DNA from: Rhodobiaceae bacterium | GTDB lineage: Bacteria; Pseudomonadota; Alphaproteobacteria; Rhizobiales; Aestuariivirgaceae | Length of the DNA: 64,000 nt | Reading direction: 5' to 3' | Assembly: GCA_031417195.1 (NCBI GenBank) | Contig: JANOVC010000026.1 | Location: 23,100-87,099 of the forward strand | Shown: positions 15,009-61,340 of the stretch, one piece after another | How positions within the stretch are numbered: the stretch's first letter is position 1 | Layout: every line of letters starts with the position of its first letter | The notes under the pieces: generated by a model | What the model was told of the DNA's origin: nothing | Database searches by the model: none | The model's input: only the letters and a program-made list of their open reading frames with translations | Made by a program: the position numbers and the translations under genes

Positions 15009-15031
15009 TGGTCGGCATTGACCAGGACATC
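15009..15031 (-). repeat. Possible degenerate copy of the main REP-like repeat
   Basis: TGGTCGGCATTGACCAGGACATC matches TGGTCGGGCTTGACCCGACCACC at 17 of 23 positions; adjacent 14997-15010 matches CATGGTCGGGCTTG at 12 of 14. Confidence 0.4.
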
Positions 15032-18041: not shown

Positions 18042-18077
18042 CTGGGTGGTCGGGTCAGGCCCGACCATGGAGAGAAT
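18042..18077 (+). repeat. REP-like palindromic repeat, copy 1
   Basis: CTGGGTGGTCGGGTCAGGCCCGACCATGGAGAGAAT; core hairpin TGGTCGGG-N5-CCCGACCA; near-identical to the copies at 56-57.6 kb. Confidence 0.9.
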
Positions 18078-55041: not shown

Positions 55042-55134
55042 TTAGATCTTCTTCTTTGCAGCAGCCTTCTTCGCTGGTTTCTTTGCAGCAGCCTTTTTAG
55101 CGGGCTTCTTTGCAGCTTTTTTCGCAGCAGCCAT
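55042..55134 (-). CDS. 30-aa Lys/Ala/Pro histone-H1-like microprotein MAAAKKAAKKPAKKAAAKKPAKKAAAKKKI
   Basis: Not in the ORF track. RBS AGGAGAG before ATG 55134, TAA at 55042-55044, own terminator; wobble positions vary among the Ala/Lys codons, as expected for coding DNA. Confidence 0.85.
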   Translation of the reverse strand: MAAAKKAAKKPAKKAAAKKPAKKAAAKKKI

Positions 55135-55669
55135 TTTGTTCTCTCCTAGAGATTAGTTGTTAGTGCCCCACAACGCAGGCTAGTCCATTACACTAACGAT
55201 TCTTCCTACATGTATTCCGTATTCGTAATCGTCATTGGTTGCTTTTCTACCCGTTTGTGTGATTCGGCAATATGCCGTCAACATGTTGTGTATCAACCCA
55301 ACATCCCTAACAATTGGTAAACGATACGGGTGGTTGGTGTATCGTCCGTATACTGAGGGATTTTTTAAAACAGCGATTTACACCATAAAAAGTAGTATTT
55401 TTAAGGCTCCTCCGTGTACAGATGGATTATAGATTTTGAATGTTTTTAGTTGAAAAAGCGGAGTTGAATTTTTTGCCGCCTGGCACCCTGTGGAAAAATA
55501 TTTGAAAATAATTTGCGCTTTGTGCTGATTCAACACAGCTATCAATGCGGTCATCGCGCCTATTGGCACTCTTTCGATCATGGACATAGGGCAAGGCGGA
55601 TAGTGTCATGAGGGGCTGGCCTCGCAGTTCACCATGGCGGAAAAACCAAAGCCGACGTTCGATGCATGG

Positions 55670-56134
55670 TCAGGTGAAAAAAACATCCTTCAATTCGGCT
55701 GGAAAACTTGGTTCCTTGAATATTGCTGCATGGCGGTCTGGTCCATAATAAAAACCAAAATTTACGTTCAGCAAAACGATTGTGTAGGCCTTGTTCGTTT
55801 TGCCGATCAGGTTTTTGCCAAATGGCGCAACATCAACCCGTCCATCCGTTTGCGGAGGCCGCACATCGCTCATCAAGGCCTGAAACCTTTCTATGGACCC
55901 GATTGTTTCCGGTCCACAAACGCCATCGATTGAAATTTCAGGTTCACCAGCTCGGGCACTGCTGAATGTTTCCTTCCAAACCGAATCAACCTTATCTGCA
56001 AGCGACCGCAACAGAAACTGGACCAGCAAAACATCTTTCCTGTGATTCACACATCCCCGCCCAACTGTTGCATCATTGAAATATGCAACGCGGACATACT
56101 GGCTGGGAGTTGACAGAAGTCTTACATGTGGCAT
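55670..56134 (-). CDS. Hypothetical protein with a peptidoglycan-binding-like domain
   Basis: VG.G..N...DV.LVQ.LL...IDG.CG.ETI..I..FQ...DGRVD pattern; AT-richer DNA; start uncertain (56134 or 56155). Confidence 0.6.
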   Translation of the reverse strand: MPHVRLLSTPSQYVRVAYFNDATVGRGCVNHRKDVLLVQFLLRSLADKVDSVWKETFSSARAGEPEISIDGVCGPETIGSIERFQALMSDVRPPQTDGRVDVAPFGKNLIGKTNKAYTIVLLNVNFGFYYGPDRHAAIFKEPSFPAELKDVFFT

Positions 56135-56249
56135 TTTACTACCTGATCGAGACAACTATGCTTTACATTAGCACTGCGGCTCAAATGCCACAAGACAGTG
56201 CGCCCCGCTGGTTGACTATCCGGCTAGGAAAATTGATCTTACCTAACCA

Positions 56250-56284
56250 CTCTCCATGGTCGGGCTTGACCCTGCCACCCAGAC
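56250..56284 (-). repeat. REP-like palindromic repeat, copy 2
   Basis: CTCTCCATGGTCGGGCTTGACCCTGCCACCCAGAC, the reverse complement of the family consensus. Confidence 0.9.
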
Positions 56285-56350
56285 TTAACAGCAAGATTTG
56301 CGCTTGGGTATTGCGAGGAAATTTACCAAACTGACTTTTGTTTCAAAAGA

Positions 56351-56388
56351 GTCTGGGTGGTCGGGTCAAGCCCGACCATGGAGAGAAT
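56351..56388 (+). repeat. REP-like palindromic repeat, copy 3 (inverted pair with copy 2, 66-nt spacer)
   Basis: GTCTGGGTGGTCGGGTCAAGCCCGACCATGGAGAGAAT. Confidence 0.92.
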
Positions 56389-56417
56389 AATGGTTTGATT
56401 TAGTTTGAAATCATAAA

Positions 56418-56439
56418 TGGCCGGAGTTACCTCCGGCCA
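56418..56439. repeat. Perfect hairpin TGGCCGGAG-TTAC-CTCCGGCCA (terminator or related REP variant)
   Basis: 9-4-9 inverted repeat followed by an AT-rich tract. Confidence 0.55.
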
Positions 56440-56494
56440 AATTCTATTTTGGTTTTCCTGACGACTTTCGATTAGGTTTTTGTGTGAGTGCTGA

Positions 56495-56731
56495 TGCCGT
56501 CACCCTGAACTCGCGCAGCAGGAGCGCGAGGAGATCGACGTAATCCAGAGCTATATGCCGAAGCAGTTGTCCGACGATGAGGCGAAGGCGGCAGTTGCTG
56601 CAATCATCGCGGGCTTGGGCGCAACATCAGTCAAAGACATGGGCAAGGTGATGGCCGAGTTGAAAACGAAATATGCGGGTCAGATGGACATGGCCAAGGC
56701 GGGCGGGATTGTGAAGGGGGTGTTGGGGTAG
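56495..56731 (+). pseudogene. 5'-truncated GatB/YqeY-domain gene fragment
   Basis: Hand translation RHPELAQQEREEIDVIQSYMPKQLSDDEAKAAVAAII...KDMGKVMAELKTKYAGQMDMAKAGGIVKGVLG* matches the C-terminal half of YqeY proteins; an in-frame TGA lies at 56492-56494 just upstream. Confidence 0.8.
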
Positions 56732-56762
56732 CTCTCAAAACGCGAGAGAGCTTCACCACCAT

Positions 56763-56794
56763 CTCTCCATGGTCGGGCTTGACCCGACCACCCA
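56763..56794 (-). repeat. REP-like palindromic repeat, copy 4
   Basis: CTCTCCATGGTCGGGCTTGACCCGACCACCCA. Confidence 0.92.
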
Positions 56795-56817
56795 AAGTCT
56801 CCAATAAAATGAATTTT

Positions 56818-57537
56818 TTAATGCAGAAAGTTCTGAAGCCAATCATTTCGCGACTGTGAATAATTTTCACGCGCCAATTTCACTTCGTTCCACGTATCAG
56901 GAAAGAATATATCCAAATTTGTTGATGCTTCACAGGCAAGCGAACCCATTTCGGTCAACATGATTTTTAGCATCTTGTGTTCGATAAAAGGACCGATGAA
57001 AGCGTCGCCATCAGGTTCGTGTCGAAGCAAATAATTTGACTTCATGGTCGGATGACTGGCTAGTTCAGAAAACGCTTTGTATCGTTCTGCTCGTCTCTTC
57101 TGTGTGAAGCCGTCCCGTGCATCTAAAATTATACGCACTTTAGGTGGGCCGAATTTTTTATTGCGCTCGCTATCCTCGGTCAATCTCCAAGTCGATATTG
57201 AACTTTTGTCCGTACTAAACATATCCAAAAGAAACACAGTTTCCAAAATGTCTCTCATAATCAGCGCGCTGTTTTGACTGTAACCAACCATTACCAATTT
57301 GATACTGGCGGCGAAGGCATTAAATATTCGCATGCCAAAGATTTGTATAACCTTCAAATCTTCGTCCTCAGTTTTAAACTGCCGCAGCATATTGGCCATA
57401 TCCATCGTTTGTTGGACGATGTTAATATGTAAAACAAGATCAGCGTCGCTTGTAATCAAATTTAAGGCTTTTTGACGCAATAATTCTTCGCCTTTGTGAA
57501 GGCGCAATAAGTTTTCAAGCGTCATAATTGAATTCAC
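56818..57537 (-). CDS. AT-rich helical hypothetical protein (possible HEPN/DUF5677-like), bracketed by REP copies 4 and 5
   Basis: 239-aa ORF on AT-rich DNA; ALIMRDILETVFLL and RYKAFSELASHP motifs; start may be GTG 57537 or ATG 57525. Confidence 0.7.
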   Translation of the reverse strand: MNSIMTLENLLRLHKGEELLRQKALNLITSDADLVLHINIVQQTMDMANMLRQFKTEDEDLKVIQIFGMRIFNAFAASIKLVMVGYSQNSALIMRDILETVFLLDMFSTDKSSISTWRLTEDSERNKKFGPPKVRIILDARDGFTQKRRAERYKAFSELASHPTMKSNYLLRHEPDGDAFIGPFIEHKMLKIMLTEMGSLACEASTNLDIFFPDTWNEVKLARENYSQSRNDWLQNFLH

Positions 57538-57552
57538 CGTTAGGGAAAAGGA

Positions 57553-57587
57553 GTCTGGGTGGTCGGGTCAAGCCCGACCATTGAGAG
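57553..57587 (+). repeat. REP-like palindromic repeat, copy 5 (inverted pair with copy 4)
   Basis: GTCTGGGTGGTCGGGTCAAGCCCGACCATTGAGAG. Confidence 0.92.
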
Positions 57588-57612
57588 TTGGGGTTTGATT
57601 GGGTCTTAAATT

Positions 57613-57648
57613 AAAAAAATGCCCGCGAAATTTTCACGGGCATTTTTT
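57613..57648 (-). terminator. Rho-independent (potentially bidirectional) terminator after nrdJ
   Basis: AAAAAATGCCCG-N11-CGGGCATTTTTT. Confidence 0.85.
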
Positions 57649-57668
57649 GTTTTATGTTTTAGACGCTA

Positions 57669-60600
57669 TCAAGAACATCCACTCGTTGACCCACACGAGT
57701 TACACTTCAAACATGTGCCGTTGCGCACGAGCGTGTAGTTTCCGCATTCGCCGCAGCTGTCGCCTTCGTAGCCTTGGAGCTTGGCTTTGGCGCGTTGGTC
57801 TTGGGCGTTGAGCGTGGCTGCAGGTGCTGGTTGCTCATAGACGTGTGCGGTTGGGGCTTCGGCAAGCGCGAGGGCACCCACTGACATCGATTCCGCGGCG
57901 CGCATTTGCAGGGCGTGGGCGGGGGATGACGCCGTGGTGGCCGACTGGGGCATGACCACTACGTTCGACAGGTTCTGTTTTCGCACAAAGCCTGACGACA
58001 TGAACTTCTGGGCCGGAACCGATGGCACCTTGGGTTCATCCTCATCAATGCCTTTGCCGAGCGCGTCAAAACCCATTTCGGAGGCTTCAACATGGGCCAG
58101 ATCATTGCGGCCCAGATAGGACACGGCAAGTTCGCGGAACACGTAGTCCAAGATGGACGTGGCATTCTTGATGGACTCGTTGCCCTGCACCATGCCGGCG
58201 GGTTCAAACTTGGTGAAGGTGAAGGCATCGACATATTCTTCCAGCGGCACACCGTATTGCAGGCCCACCGAGATGGAAATGGCGAAGTTGTTCATCATGG
58301 CGCGCAGGGCCGCACCTTCCTTGTGCATGTCGATGAAGATTTCACCGAGCTTGCCGTCGTCATATTCACCAGTGCGGAGATAGACCTTATGGCCACCGAC
58401 CACGGCCTTCTGAGTATAGCCCTTGCGGCGGCCCGGCAGCTTGTCACGGCCACGGGCAATTTCGATCACCTTCTCGACGATGGTTTCGATGCGTTGAACG
58501 ATGGGCTTGGCCATCAGGCCTTCGACCATATCTTCGCCCTCGTCCGCATCATCGGAAATGAGCTGGGTGGAGAGGGGCTGCGAGAGCTTGGAGCCATCGC
58601 GATACAGTGCGTTTGCCTTCACGCCCAACTTCCACGACAGCATGTAGGCTGCGTTACAGTCGGCAACCGTTGCATCATTCGGCATGTTGATGGTTTTGGA
58701 AATGGCACCCGAGATAAAAGGTTGTGATGCCGCCATCATGCGAATGTGGCTGTCCACGCTCAAGTAACGCTTGCCCAGACGACCGCAGGCGTTGGCGCAA
58801 TCGAACACGGGGAGATGCTCGTCCTTCAAGCCGGGAGCGCCTTCCAGCGTCATGGCACCGCAGACATGCAGGTTGGCCTTGTCGATATCGGCCTTAGAGA
58901 AGCCGAGATGGGCCAAGAGATCAAAGCTGTAGTCGCTCAACTGCTCGTCGCTGATTTTCAGCACTGACTTGCAGAAGTCTTCGCCCAGCGTCCACTTGTT
59001 GAACACGAACTTGATATCGAAGGCGGACGCCAGACCGGCTTCAACTTTTTCAATCTGTGTGTCACCCAAGCCCTTGGAGCGGAGCTGGCCATGGTTGAGG
59101 GCAGGGGAATCCTGCAGGGTGCCAAGACCTACCGCGTAGTTGATGATCTTTTCGATCTGGGTTGCATCATAGCGGAGCGTGCGCAGGGCCTCCGGTACGG
59201 CCTGGTTGATGATCTTGAAGTAGCCACCGCCTGCAAGCTTTTTGAACTTCACGAGCGCGAAGTCCGGCTCAATGCCTGTGGTGTCGCAATCCATGACAAG
59301 GCCGATGGTGCCGGTTGGCGCCACAACGGTTGCCTGCGCATTGCGGTAGCCATGGGCCTCACCGAGTTCAACGGCCTTGTCCCAGGCAAGACGTGCATGG
59401 GTAACCAGGTCCTTGTCGAGGCAGGCCGCATCATCCAATGGCACGGGTGCGATGTTCACGCCTTCGTAGCCCACGGCCGCACCATAGGCAGCGCGGCGAT
59501 GGTTGCGCATCACGCGCAGCATGTGGTCGCGGTTCTTGGCAAAGCCAGGGAAGGGGCCAAGCTCCTTGGCCATTTCAGCCGAGGTTGCATAGGATACGCC
59601 GGTCATGATGGCCGACAGTGCACCGCAGATAGCGCGGCCTTCATGGCTGTCATAGGAAATGCCGTTAGTCATCAGAAGCCCACCGATATTGGCAAAGCCC
59701 AAACCGAGGGTGCAATACTCATAGGATTGCTTGGCAATTTCCTTCGATGGGAACTGTGCCATGAGAACGGAGATTTCCAGAACCATGGTCCACAGGCGAA
59801 CGCCGTGCTCGTAAGCGGCCACATCAAACTTTGCGGTGTCCGGATTGCGGAACTGCAACAGGTTCAATGATGCAAGGTTACACGCCGTATCATCGAGGAA
59901 CATATATTCCGAGCAAGGGTTCGATGCGCGGATTTCACCGGATGCGGGGCAGGTGTGCCAGTCATTGATGGTGGTGTGATATTGAATGCCGGGATCGGCT
60001 GACGCCCAAGCGGCTTGGCCAATCTTGTCCCACAGGTCGCGGGCCTGCAACGTCTTGGTGACCTTGTTGGACATGCGGGCATTCAGATTCCATGCGCCAT
60101 CGGTTTCAACGGCGCGCAGGAACTCATCGGTCACACGCACCGAGTTGTTGGAGTTCTGGCCCGACACCGTTCGGTAGGCCTCGCCATCCCAATCGGTGTC
60201 ATAGGCATCAAATTCAAGCTCGGTGTAGCCCTGCTTGGCAAACTGCACCACGCGCTTGATGTAATTGTCCGGCACCATGTTGCGGCGGGCATCTTTCACC
60301 GCGCGCTTGAGGGCAGGATTTTTTTCAATCTCGAAGCAATCATCGCCGGGGCCTTCGCAATTCACGCAGGCCTTCATGATGATGCCGAGATGCTTTTTCA
60401 CAATCTTGGAACCGGTGACGAGAGCTGCAACCTTCTGCTCCTCCTTCACCTTCCAATCGATATATTCCTCGACATCGGGATGATCCACATCAACGACCAC
60501 CATCTTGGCCGCACGTCGCGTGGTGCCGCCGGACTTGATGGCACCCGCTGCACGGTCACCAATTTTCAGGAAGCTCATCAGGCCGGAGGATTTTCCGCCG

Positions 60601-61340
60601 CCGGAGAGTTTTTCGCTTTCGCCGCGCAGGTGCGAAAAGTTTGAACCGGTGCCGGAGCCATATTTGAACAGGCGCGCTTCACGCACCCAGAGATCCATGA
60701 TGCCGCCTTCGTTGACAAGATCGTCAGCCACGCCCTGAATAAAGCAGGCGTGGGGTTGTGGATGCTCATAGGATGACTTGGATTTGGTGAGCTTGCCGGT
60801 TTCAAAATCCACATAGAAGTGACCTTGACCTGGGCCATCAATACCATAAGCCCAGTGCAGGCCGGTGTTGAACCATTGTGGTGAGTTTGGCGCGCACTTT
60901 TGGGTGGCCAGCATGTAGCAGAGTTCATCATAAAAGGCTTGTGCGTCGTCTTCGGTGTTGAAGTAGCCGCCCTTCCAGCCCCAATAGGTCCAGGTGCCGG
61001 CAAGCCGGTTGAACACCTGCTTGGAGCTCATTTCGCCAATGATGCGTTGCTTCTCAGGAATCGCTTCCAACGCGGCGTCATCAGCCACGGAGCGCCACAA
61101 CCATGAGGGAATGCTGTTTTCTTCAATGCGCTTCAACGCAGCGGGAACACCAGCCTTGCGGAAATATTTCTGGGCCAGAATATCAGTCGCAACCTGGCTC
61201 CACGATGCGGGAACCTCGATGTTTTCCAGACGGAAAACAATCGACCCGTCCGGGTTCTTGATTTCGCTGGTCGCCCTGCGGAATTCGATCTCCGCGTAAG
61301 CGTTCTGTCCGGCCTTGGTAAATTTGCGTTCGACTAACAT
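57669..61340 (-). CDS. nrdJ: Class II (vitamin B12-dependent) ribonucleotide reductase
   Basis: [48 protein letters not shown]-terminal CGECG...CNSCG; 1223 aa with no intein-like insert seen. Confidence 0.97.

Follow-up and report, generated by a model that had tools for sequence, protein, structure and literature searches.

In the window analyzed here, a 64,000-nt stretch of contig C26 (C26:23100-87099) from the genome of a Rhodobiaceae bacterium, two inverted copies of a short hairpin repeat bracket a single gene beside nrdJ. These repeats are probably the partner sequence of a ~95-aa single-domain GIY-YIG nuclease of the Ssn/SRM kind, albeit with a variant head, and the bracket is probably an SRM-gene-SRM arrangement rather than a self-mobile or integron-like element. 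Selection maintains the repeat as an 8-bp hairpin whose head and tail are conserved and oriented. Across the genus Aestuariivirga, an inverted pair of it surrounds the nuclease gene; otherwise it forms tail-to-tail doublets, and it clusters in variable intergenic regions together with AT-rich foreign genes. On present evidence, the locus is an example of the repeat-gene-repeat organization already seen in Neisseria. The source genome (G000) was assembled from a freshwater sediment metagenome and comprises 3.54 Mb in 112 contigs, with a GC content of 0.53 that serves as the reference for AT-richness below.

Oriented hairpin repeats form inverted pairs

Five copies of a 32-nt repeat with 0-2 mismatches were found in the window (18043-, 56250+, 56354-, 56763+ and 57556-), where shuffled sequences gave an expectation of zero. 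Those at 56763-56794 (+) and 57556-57587 (-) converge, with their ...ACCCAGACT ends pointing inward, on a minus-strand open reading frame (ORF) at 56818-57537, so the inward-facing geometry described in the original prediction is real. The close packing noted there was also recovered: the repeat core lies 23 nt from the stop codon of the ORF on one side and 18 nt from its GTG codon on the other (~14-15 nt with the GACT extension included), and the terminator hairpin of nrdJ (about 57612-57649) and the nrdJ stop codon (57669) directly adjoin the bracket. A second inverted pair (56250/56354) is present 400 bp away, as proposed, with 72 nt between the cores and 66 nt between the extended repeats.

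Across the genome, only 11 copies were detected at ≤3 mismatches; an iterated hidden Markov model (HMM) retrieved 48 members of a wider family. As 13/48 of these hits are located at contig ends, all counts of repeats and pairs are lower bounds. The members share a common layout consisting of CTCTCCAT, a 7-8-nt stem, a CTTGA-like loop, the complementary stem and ACCCAG(ACT), with GGTCGGG, GGCAGGG, CATCGGC and CACCGCC among the stem variants. The repeat folds as DNA with -9.9 kcal/mol (z = -4.9), and every stem variant yields a hairpin of about -10 kcal/mol with z values from -3.6 to -4.9. For the analysis of covariation, 25 distinct variants from this genome and the genus, chosen by hand from HMM and pattern hits, were aligned. 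Compensatory changes were observed in 6/8 stem pairs and 97.5% of the cells were paired, while CCAT within the head (CTCCAT) and CCAG within the tail (ACCCAG) were invariant or nearly so. With its invariant CCAT head and conserved A[C/A]CCAG tail, the repeat has the oriented, non-palindromic ends around a hairpin that are expected of SRM-type repeats.

The 48 genome hits include 20 neighboring pairs at distances of up to 2.5 kb, compared to 1.5 expected, so tabulating copies and pairs genome-wide revealed clustering far above chance. In 16 of the 20 pairs the tails face inward (+,-), and three (-,+) pairs represent the junctions between successive units. Inverted doublets are hence the common form, as in REPINs (inverted doublets of repetitive extragenic palindromes, REPs), and the suggestion of a REP-like hairpin family with the inverted pair as its structural unit was borne out. 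A pattern search of 61 Aestuariivirga genomes identified the repeat in 27 of them, and the spacing of (+,-) pairs repeatedly took fixed values of about 59, 103-120 and 338 bp. Most of the apparently single copies in relatives (16 regions fetched from three relatives) turned out to be heterotypic doublets as well.

The inverted pair encloses a GIY-YIG nuclease gene

All 338-bp pairs fetched from the genus, seven loci in six genomes (two in G013 and one each in G075, G036, G062, G068 and G072), consist of exact repeat copies ~338 bp apart that enclose a gene for a GIY-YIG protein of 94-95 aa. The layout of these loci is constant: repeat, ACTTAGC, about 10 nt, the coding sequence from ATG to stop, and the inverted repeat. 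In the source genome, a 95-aa ORF (C64:56931-57218) matching PF01541 over its whole length (E = 4e-17) is located between two inverted repeat copies in a decayed state, 17 nt upstream and 2 nt downstream of the gene. In total, the nuclease bracket is thus found at eight loci in seven Aestuariivirga genomes, and the proposed search for a small nuclease gene flanked by the same repeat was successful both in the source genome and beyond it. A single-domain GIY-YIG gene of ~94 codons flanked 5' and 3' by inverted hairpin repeats is the published arrangement of Ssn/SRM systems.

This second cluster on C64 (C64:54904-57251; L003 3905-6252) contains five repeat copies, with a bracket around two further genes, ORF282 and ORF74, and the nuclease bracket directly after it. 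G013, G075 and G062 carry the nuclease element at the gcrA locus; the source genome lacks it and has no repeat at this position. In the three loci that contain it (L056, L058, L060), both flanking repeats share the same stem, which reads GGTCGGG in two species (G013/G075 type) and GGCCGGG in the third (G062); the same stem change on both flanking copies implies a concerted change of the two.

Two other GIY-YIG genes of the source genome, on C34 and C22, are flanked by different palindromes of the CGTCAT type. Additional repeat families, of the CGTCATCCCGAC...GTCGGGA type and the GTCATCCCCGC type, were noted at C38:5100-6800, C34:64240-64350 and C22:5230-5830, some of them flanking these two GIY-YIG genes, and a long palindrome of ~130 nt occurs at least twice on C38.

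Comparison with the Ssn/SRM system of Neisseria

The Ssn nucleases of Neisseria, reported in 2025, have 94 aa and a single GIY-YIG domain; their only substrate is single-stranded DNA (ssDNA), which they cut next to an oriented hairpin repeat, termed NTS/SRM, leaving the reverse strand of the NTS uncut (Chenal et al. 2025, Nat Commun, PMC11893778). According to this study, 42% of Ssn homologues are flanked by repeats on both sides, and the repeats cluster around particular genes (PMC11893778). DNA with an NTS-gene-NTS structure was further shown to integrate less well by transformation, with the incoming strand cut near the repeats, and the authors liken NTS-ssnA-NTS to insertion sequences and to the REP/RAYT system (REP-associated tyrosine transposases; PMC11893778). 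Since both the repeat-nuclease-repeat architecture and the clustering of repeats around genes had been published, the mechanism called undescribed in the original prediction has a described precedent. A literature search for GIY-YIG proteins together with REPs, REPINs or palindromic repeats returned nothing relevant.

The system described here resembles the published one in having a ~94-aa single-domain GIY-YIG gene with inverted hairpin repeats of 30-36 nt on both sides, and a repeat in which a conserved, oriented head and tail surround a variable palindrome that is followed by a C. The tails, ACCCAG here and ATCYRG in the published repeat, have much in common. In both cases, the repeats cluster in intergenic DNA around particular genes, and several nuclease/repeat pairs coexist in one genome (here also those on C34 and C22 with CGTCAT-type repeats). 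Differences concern the head (CTCCAT instead of CGTCAT), the copy number (~48 compared to hundreds), the host, which is a free-living freshwater Aestuariivirga, and the cargo, which comprises AT-rich accessory and defence genes rather than surface antigens. Moreover, the published enzyme was assayed, whereas the system described here is known from its sequence.

Transferred from Neisseria, the mechanism would be as follows. Whenever the DNA becomes single-stranded, during uptake, conjugation or replication, the hairpins would fold and the nuclease would cut next to the head. On each strand, an inverted pair would then expose a single site for cutting, located on the outer side of the bracket, and a cut at this position could part the enclosed gene from its flanking homology and thereby modulate recombinational exchange. 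As the published enzyme spares the reverse strand, a single cut per strand is to be expected, which fits a modulation of recombination and speaks against excision by two cuts on one strand. The identical 35-nt copies may also serve as recombination substrates and generate local mosaics such as the truncated yqeY gene and the duplicated terminator-repeat junction described below.

Several points weigh against assigning the repeats to such a nuclease. The copies around the nuclease gene of the source genome are decayed, with six mismatches each, while those around the ORF in the window are near-perfect. The best relatives of the nuclease with solved structures are the UPF0213 proteins 1zg2 and 1ywl at E values of only 3e-4 and 8e-3, respectively. 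The published SRM pattern HGTCWY...RNCYNB matches the repeat on neither strand, as the head reads CTCCAT and not NGTCWY. Finally, all four brackets with cargo other than the nuclease (see below) are in (+,-) orientation, for which the chance would be ~0.4% if the insertions were independent and randomly oriented; this uniformity implies that pairs arise or persist as units around foreign DNA by a process for which the proposed assignment does not account.

If the assignment to the Ssn/SRM kind is correct, it extends Ssn/hairpin-repeat systems to a free-living freshwater genus of alphaproteobacteria. Because the head of this repeat is missed by the published search pattern, such systems are probably under-counted.

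Comparison with REPINs, integrons and minimal mobile elements

Short extragenic palindromes arranged as inverted doublets, often heterotypic as in bacterial interspersed mosaic elements (BIMEs), are shared with REP/REPIN/BIME families, as is a putative enzyme gene that is itself flanked by the repeats. However, the flanked enzyme is a GIY-YIG nuclease here and not a Y1 HUH transposase, and there is no GTAG-type head. Two RAYT-like Y1_Tnp genes of the source genome (C47:2378-2710 and C17:1484-1816) showed neither a match to the repeat in their flanks nor comparable inverted pairs. As both genes are unassociated with the repeat, a RAYT/REPIN system was rejected, and the suggested mobilization by RAYT is unsupported.

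With integron cassettes, the bracket shares a small single ORF beside a foldable imperfect palindrome, and single-stranded hairpins are likely the active form in both. In contrast to the single 3' attC site of a cassette, each gene has two inverted 36-nt repeats, and intI, attI, Pc and a co-oriented array are lacking; neighboring modules are not co-oriented. All seven matches of the genome to tyrosine recombinases (PF00589) are located on contigs other than that of the window. With an integrase-free contig and the wrong repeat layout, an integron was rejected, and the integron-like capture put forward in the original prediction is unsupported. The accompanying statement that no recombinase is encoded in the window holds for the three families searched, PF00589, Y1_Tnp and GIY-YIG, which have matches on other contigs only.

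In the minimal mobile elements and dRS3-flanked regions of Neisseria, different whole genes occupy one slot between conserved anchors. A comparable slot exists here between the genes for an L,D-transpeptidase (Ldt) and a microprotein on one side and nrdJ on the other; it holds inserts of ~0.4, 1.3, 2.3 or 2.5 kb and has repeats at its borders. The host is an alphaproteobacterium, though, and transformation would be only a putative route of exchange here. The dRS3 repeats are also discussed in the Ssn study (PMC11893778).

The bracket in the variable slot beside nrdJ

The conserved right anchor of the variable region is nrdJ (57669-61340, minus strand), encoding a class II ribonucleotide reductase, with its terminator hairpin and T-run at 57612-57649 (-); a similar hairpin follows nrdJ in the cassette-free relative G022. 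In five species-level relatives, the L,D-transpeptidase gene is followed by a small Lys/Ala-rich gene, a spacer of ~400 bp and then nrdJ, with neither the ORF nor any repeats, and two other relatives contain different inserts of 1.3 and 2.5 kb in this slot. These short or different contents indicate that the ~2 kb at about 55600-57610 of the window were inserted into a slot of variable content.

Read along the plus strand, this mosaic begins with ORF161 (55670-56155, minus strand), which has no family match and belongs to a ~2-kb block absent from species-level relatives. It is followed by the gene-less doublet, comprising repeat copy 2 (56250-56285, +), whose stem is a type A/B hybrid (CCCTGCC) with two base pairs broken, a spacer (56286-56349) with partial likeness to that of a ~103-bp doublet in the relative G013, and the exact copy 3 (56350-56385, -), whose outer flank consists of AATCAAACC plus a hairpin. 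A terminator-like hairpin, T2 (56418-56439), and a truncated GatB/YqeY gene fragment (56503-56731, +; residues 56-131), 85% identical at the nucleotide level to the intact native copy on C61, precede the bracket itself. The latter comprises copy 4 with an exact core (56763-56798, +), the ORF, and copy 5 (57552-57587, -), which has one mismatch in its head and lies 30 nt upstream of the ATG codon of the ORF.

A JGI contig from a close relative (L040, recovered from five samples) contains nrdJ, an extra 116-aa gene, a hairpin T2' homologous to T2 that serves as the terminator of this extra gene, a repeat, the ORF, a second repeat and yqeY (at least 131 aa). Its junction preceding the filled cassette is 83% identical to the outer flank of copy 3 in the window. 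The ORF is 92.4% identical to that of the window at the nucleotide level (89% at the amino acid level), compared to about 92% for nrdJ. As the ORF and its repeats are as diverged as the adjacent nrdJ, the bracket predates the split of the two lineages: both inherited the ORF with both repeats at the nrdJ locus, and the bracket is old and co-inherited with its flank. Despite the divergence of ~8%, both repeat cores are unchanged between the two, for which the probability would be about 0.008 (0.92^58) over the 58 bases. The extra gene (L040 840-1190), which is absent from the window, shows weak Cas2-like matches (Pfam E = 0.007, PADLOC E = 4e-4).

In a further contig, L069, a homologue of the ORF with 64% identity follows ohr, a terminator and a decayed repeat; a short yqeY fragment comes after it, without a 3' repeat, and the native yqeY is located 1.6 kb beyond this fragment. 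With a yqeY fragment outside the bracket and the 3' copy missing, the shared block exceeds the bracket and the 3' repeat is dispensable. The yqeY fragment seems to travel with the ORF, both in the window and, in its shorter form, in L069.

The enclosed gene is a widespread accessory gene

The frame of the enclosed ORF, predicted to encode 239 aa from a GTG codon at 57537, is correct, while its start is more likely the ATG codon at 57525 (56818-57525, minus strand; 235 aa), which corresponds to the protein-database form (P0001) and is co-linear with the start in the relative. The ORF is AT-rich as stated (GC ~0.40) but not an orphan: more than 550 homologues of ~245 aa at E ≤ 1e-3 were found in Hyphomicrobiales and beyond, all of them annotated as hypothetical. 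Searches for its function in NCBIfam and PADLOC yielded nothing, and Pfam only a sub-threshold match to DUF5677, a domain matched below threshold by 21/40 family members. The AlphaFold model of this DUF5677-like protein is all-helical (pLDDT 90), with no PDB neighbor at E < 0.2. A dN/dS ratio of 0.29 relative to the L040 copy indicates that the ORF is under purifying selection. It is sporadic in the genus (3/37 genomes), and the accessory contexts of homologues elsewhere vary, with one homologue immediately following a HigB/HigA pair. The enclosed ORF is therefore an ordinary, widespread accessory gene.

In the contigs concerned (L071/L072), the homologue is located 9 nt behind a HigB-like toxin and its helix-turn-helix (HTH) antitoxin, and a homologue of ORF282 is located behind a Gp49/HTH_37 pair (L185). 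These neighbors hint at a link of both cargo families with toxin-antitoxin or defence modules. The ORF-bearing unitig (56765-57580, run X1) showed a word depth of 13.5 compared to ~9.5 in four neighboring unitigs, which may reflect a second strain or a second copy of the ORF segment.

AT-rich genes recur between inverted repeats

Besides the bracket in the window, three brackets with AT-rich cargo other than the nuclease were identified, giving four in total. In the source genome, the pair C64:55002(+)/56759(-) encloses 1.68 kb (GC 0.44) with ORF282, which has more than 400 homologues, and ORF74, and the pair C38:4993(+)/6455(-) encloses 1.39 kb (GC 0.45) with a small secreted ORF and other repeats. 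In a sister species, a (+,-) pair at G013:C37:41272-42660 (L200 2673-4061) surrounds 1.32 kb (GC 0.41) that encodes the Shedu anti-phage protein SduA (400 aa, PADLOC E = 1e-122). The idea that AT-rich foreign genes recur between inverted pairs thus gained support, including a defence gene in another species. With 48 copies, pairs that are mostly tail-to-tail, and four brackets whose AT-rich cargo consists of accessory or defence genes, the repeats are linked to hotspots of gene gain.

Mobility of the bracket and alternative explanations

The orthologous sites of three brackets (nrdJ, Shedu and DUF2948) were compared in relatives, as the original prediction of empty and filled alleles had called for, and no allele delimited by the repeats was found. 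Cargo-free sites were free of repeats, and the edges of insertions and deletions did not coincide with repeats. In G036, the site orthologous to the Shedu bracket measures 264 nt and lacks the repeat, with no edge that could be aligned where the repeats lie, and relatives lack the repeats at the DUF2948 site. At the 71 loci outside the genus that encode a homologue of the ORF, no flanking inverted repeats above the control and no match to the repeat HMM were detected, and two homologues of ORF282 had no flanking repeats. A second locus with the same unit was not found: one copy only is present, and L040 is filled at the same locus. The predicted mobility of the cassette is not supported by these data, nor by the shared divergence of bracket and nrdJ and the L069 block, which exceeds the bracket and has no 3' repeat.

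Among the alternatives to an Ssn/SRM-type arrangement, the least improbable, though still unlikely, is that doublets are landing pads or portable homology arms, so that genes enter an existing doublet or are exchanged through recombination in the 35-nt repeats. In this view, brackets would be doublets that have expanded, and the 72-nt doublet would represent an unoccupied site. Doublets and brackets do share their tail-to-tail geometry, the four cargoes are all AT-rich compared to the genome, one of them being SduA, and the terminator-repeat junction of the gene-less doublet resembles that before the filled cassette in L040. On the other hand, cargo-free sites in species-level relatives contain no repeat at all, the indel edges are 43-375 nt away from the repeats, in L069 the ORF and a yqeY fragment are accompanied by a single, decayed repeat on the 5' side, and none of the cargoes was found twice. 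A broader version, in which the DNA between two inverted Ssn-type hairpins is a transferable module, the repeats act as portable cleavage sites and homology arms, and doublets across the genus receive or exchange single accessory or defence genes, appears somewhat less likely still. Candidates for such modules would be the DUF5677-like ORF, ORF282 on C64 and the Shedu gene of the sister species. If true, this would constitute a nuclease-plus-hairpin gene-cassette system distinct from integrons, and if the repeats direct the landing or exchange of foreign genes, a new route of gene-cassette traffic.

That the repeat-gene-repeat unit is mobilized in trans as a promoterless cassette, integron- or transposon-like, by the GIY-YIG nuclease or a RAYT, is very unlikely. 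The nuclease's own element does have an identical layout and is, at the gcrA locus, present in three species and absent from the source genome, and a consensus scan of the minus strand between nrdJ and the ORF revealed no sigma-70-like promoter. However, with one cuttable orientation per strand (PMC11893778), two cuts on the same strand would not be anticipated, the cassette and its flank are of equal age, the homologues in other genera are unbracketed, and neither an integrase on the contig nor a repeat-associated RAYT-like gene is available. Furthermore, neither empty nor filled junctions were seen in the source metagenomes, as covered by Logan contigs that break at each repeat; the listed "joints" are repeat ambiguities. 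The repeats could instead be neutral selfish or terminator-like hairpins that gather where insertions are tolerated, for example at the borders of foreign DNA, with the bracket having neither consequence nor common origin. Their intergenic location, the 13/48 hits at contig ends and L069, where gain or loss of the 3' copy seems to have been independent of the ORF, would fit this view, but the uniform bracket orientation is not expected under it, and both the unchanged cores in L040 and the compensatory evolution of the stem argue against it; we regard it as improbable, about as much so as the transferable modules. A mis-joining of segments between near-identical repeats during metagenome assembly, finally, is highly improbable. 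Logan unitigs break at copies 3, 4 and 5, and repeats lie at many contig ends of the 112-contig genome, but in independent JGI assemblies of five samples repeat, ORF, repeat and yqeY follow one another beside nrdJ in the same order, and the junction of the truncated yqeY lies inside one unitig.

Other features of the window

A solitary repeat copy with one mismatch was found at 18043-18074 (-), corresponding to the HMM hit C26:41141-41175, and a candidate degenerate partner at 15009-15031 was discarded as too decayed to call. Known RNA families were searched for between 54900 and 57800, and none scored above the gathering threshold. On the left side of the slot, the small Lys/Ala-rich gene (55042-55134) beside the L,D-transpeptidase gene is conserved in G013; in G022, where the contig stops short of the gene, the adjoining sequence is conserved too. 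All three genomes have conserved CCGTATACGG palindromes in the spacer beyond this gene (55300-55430).

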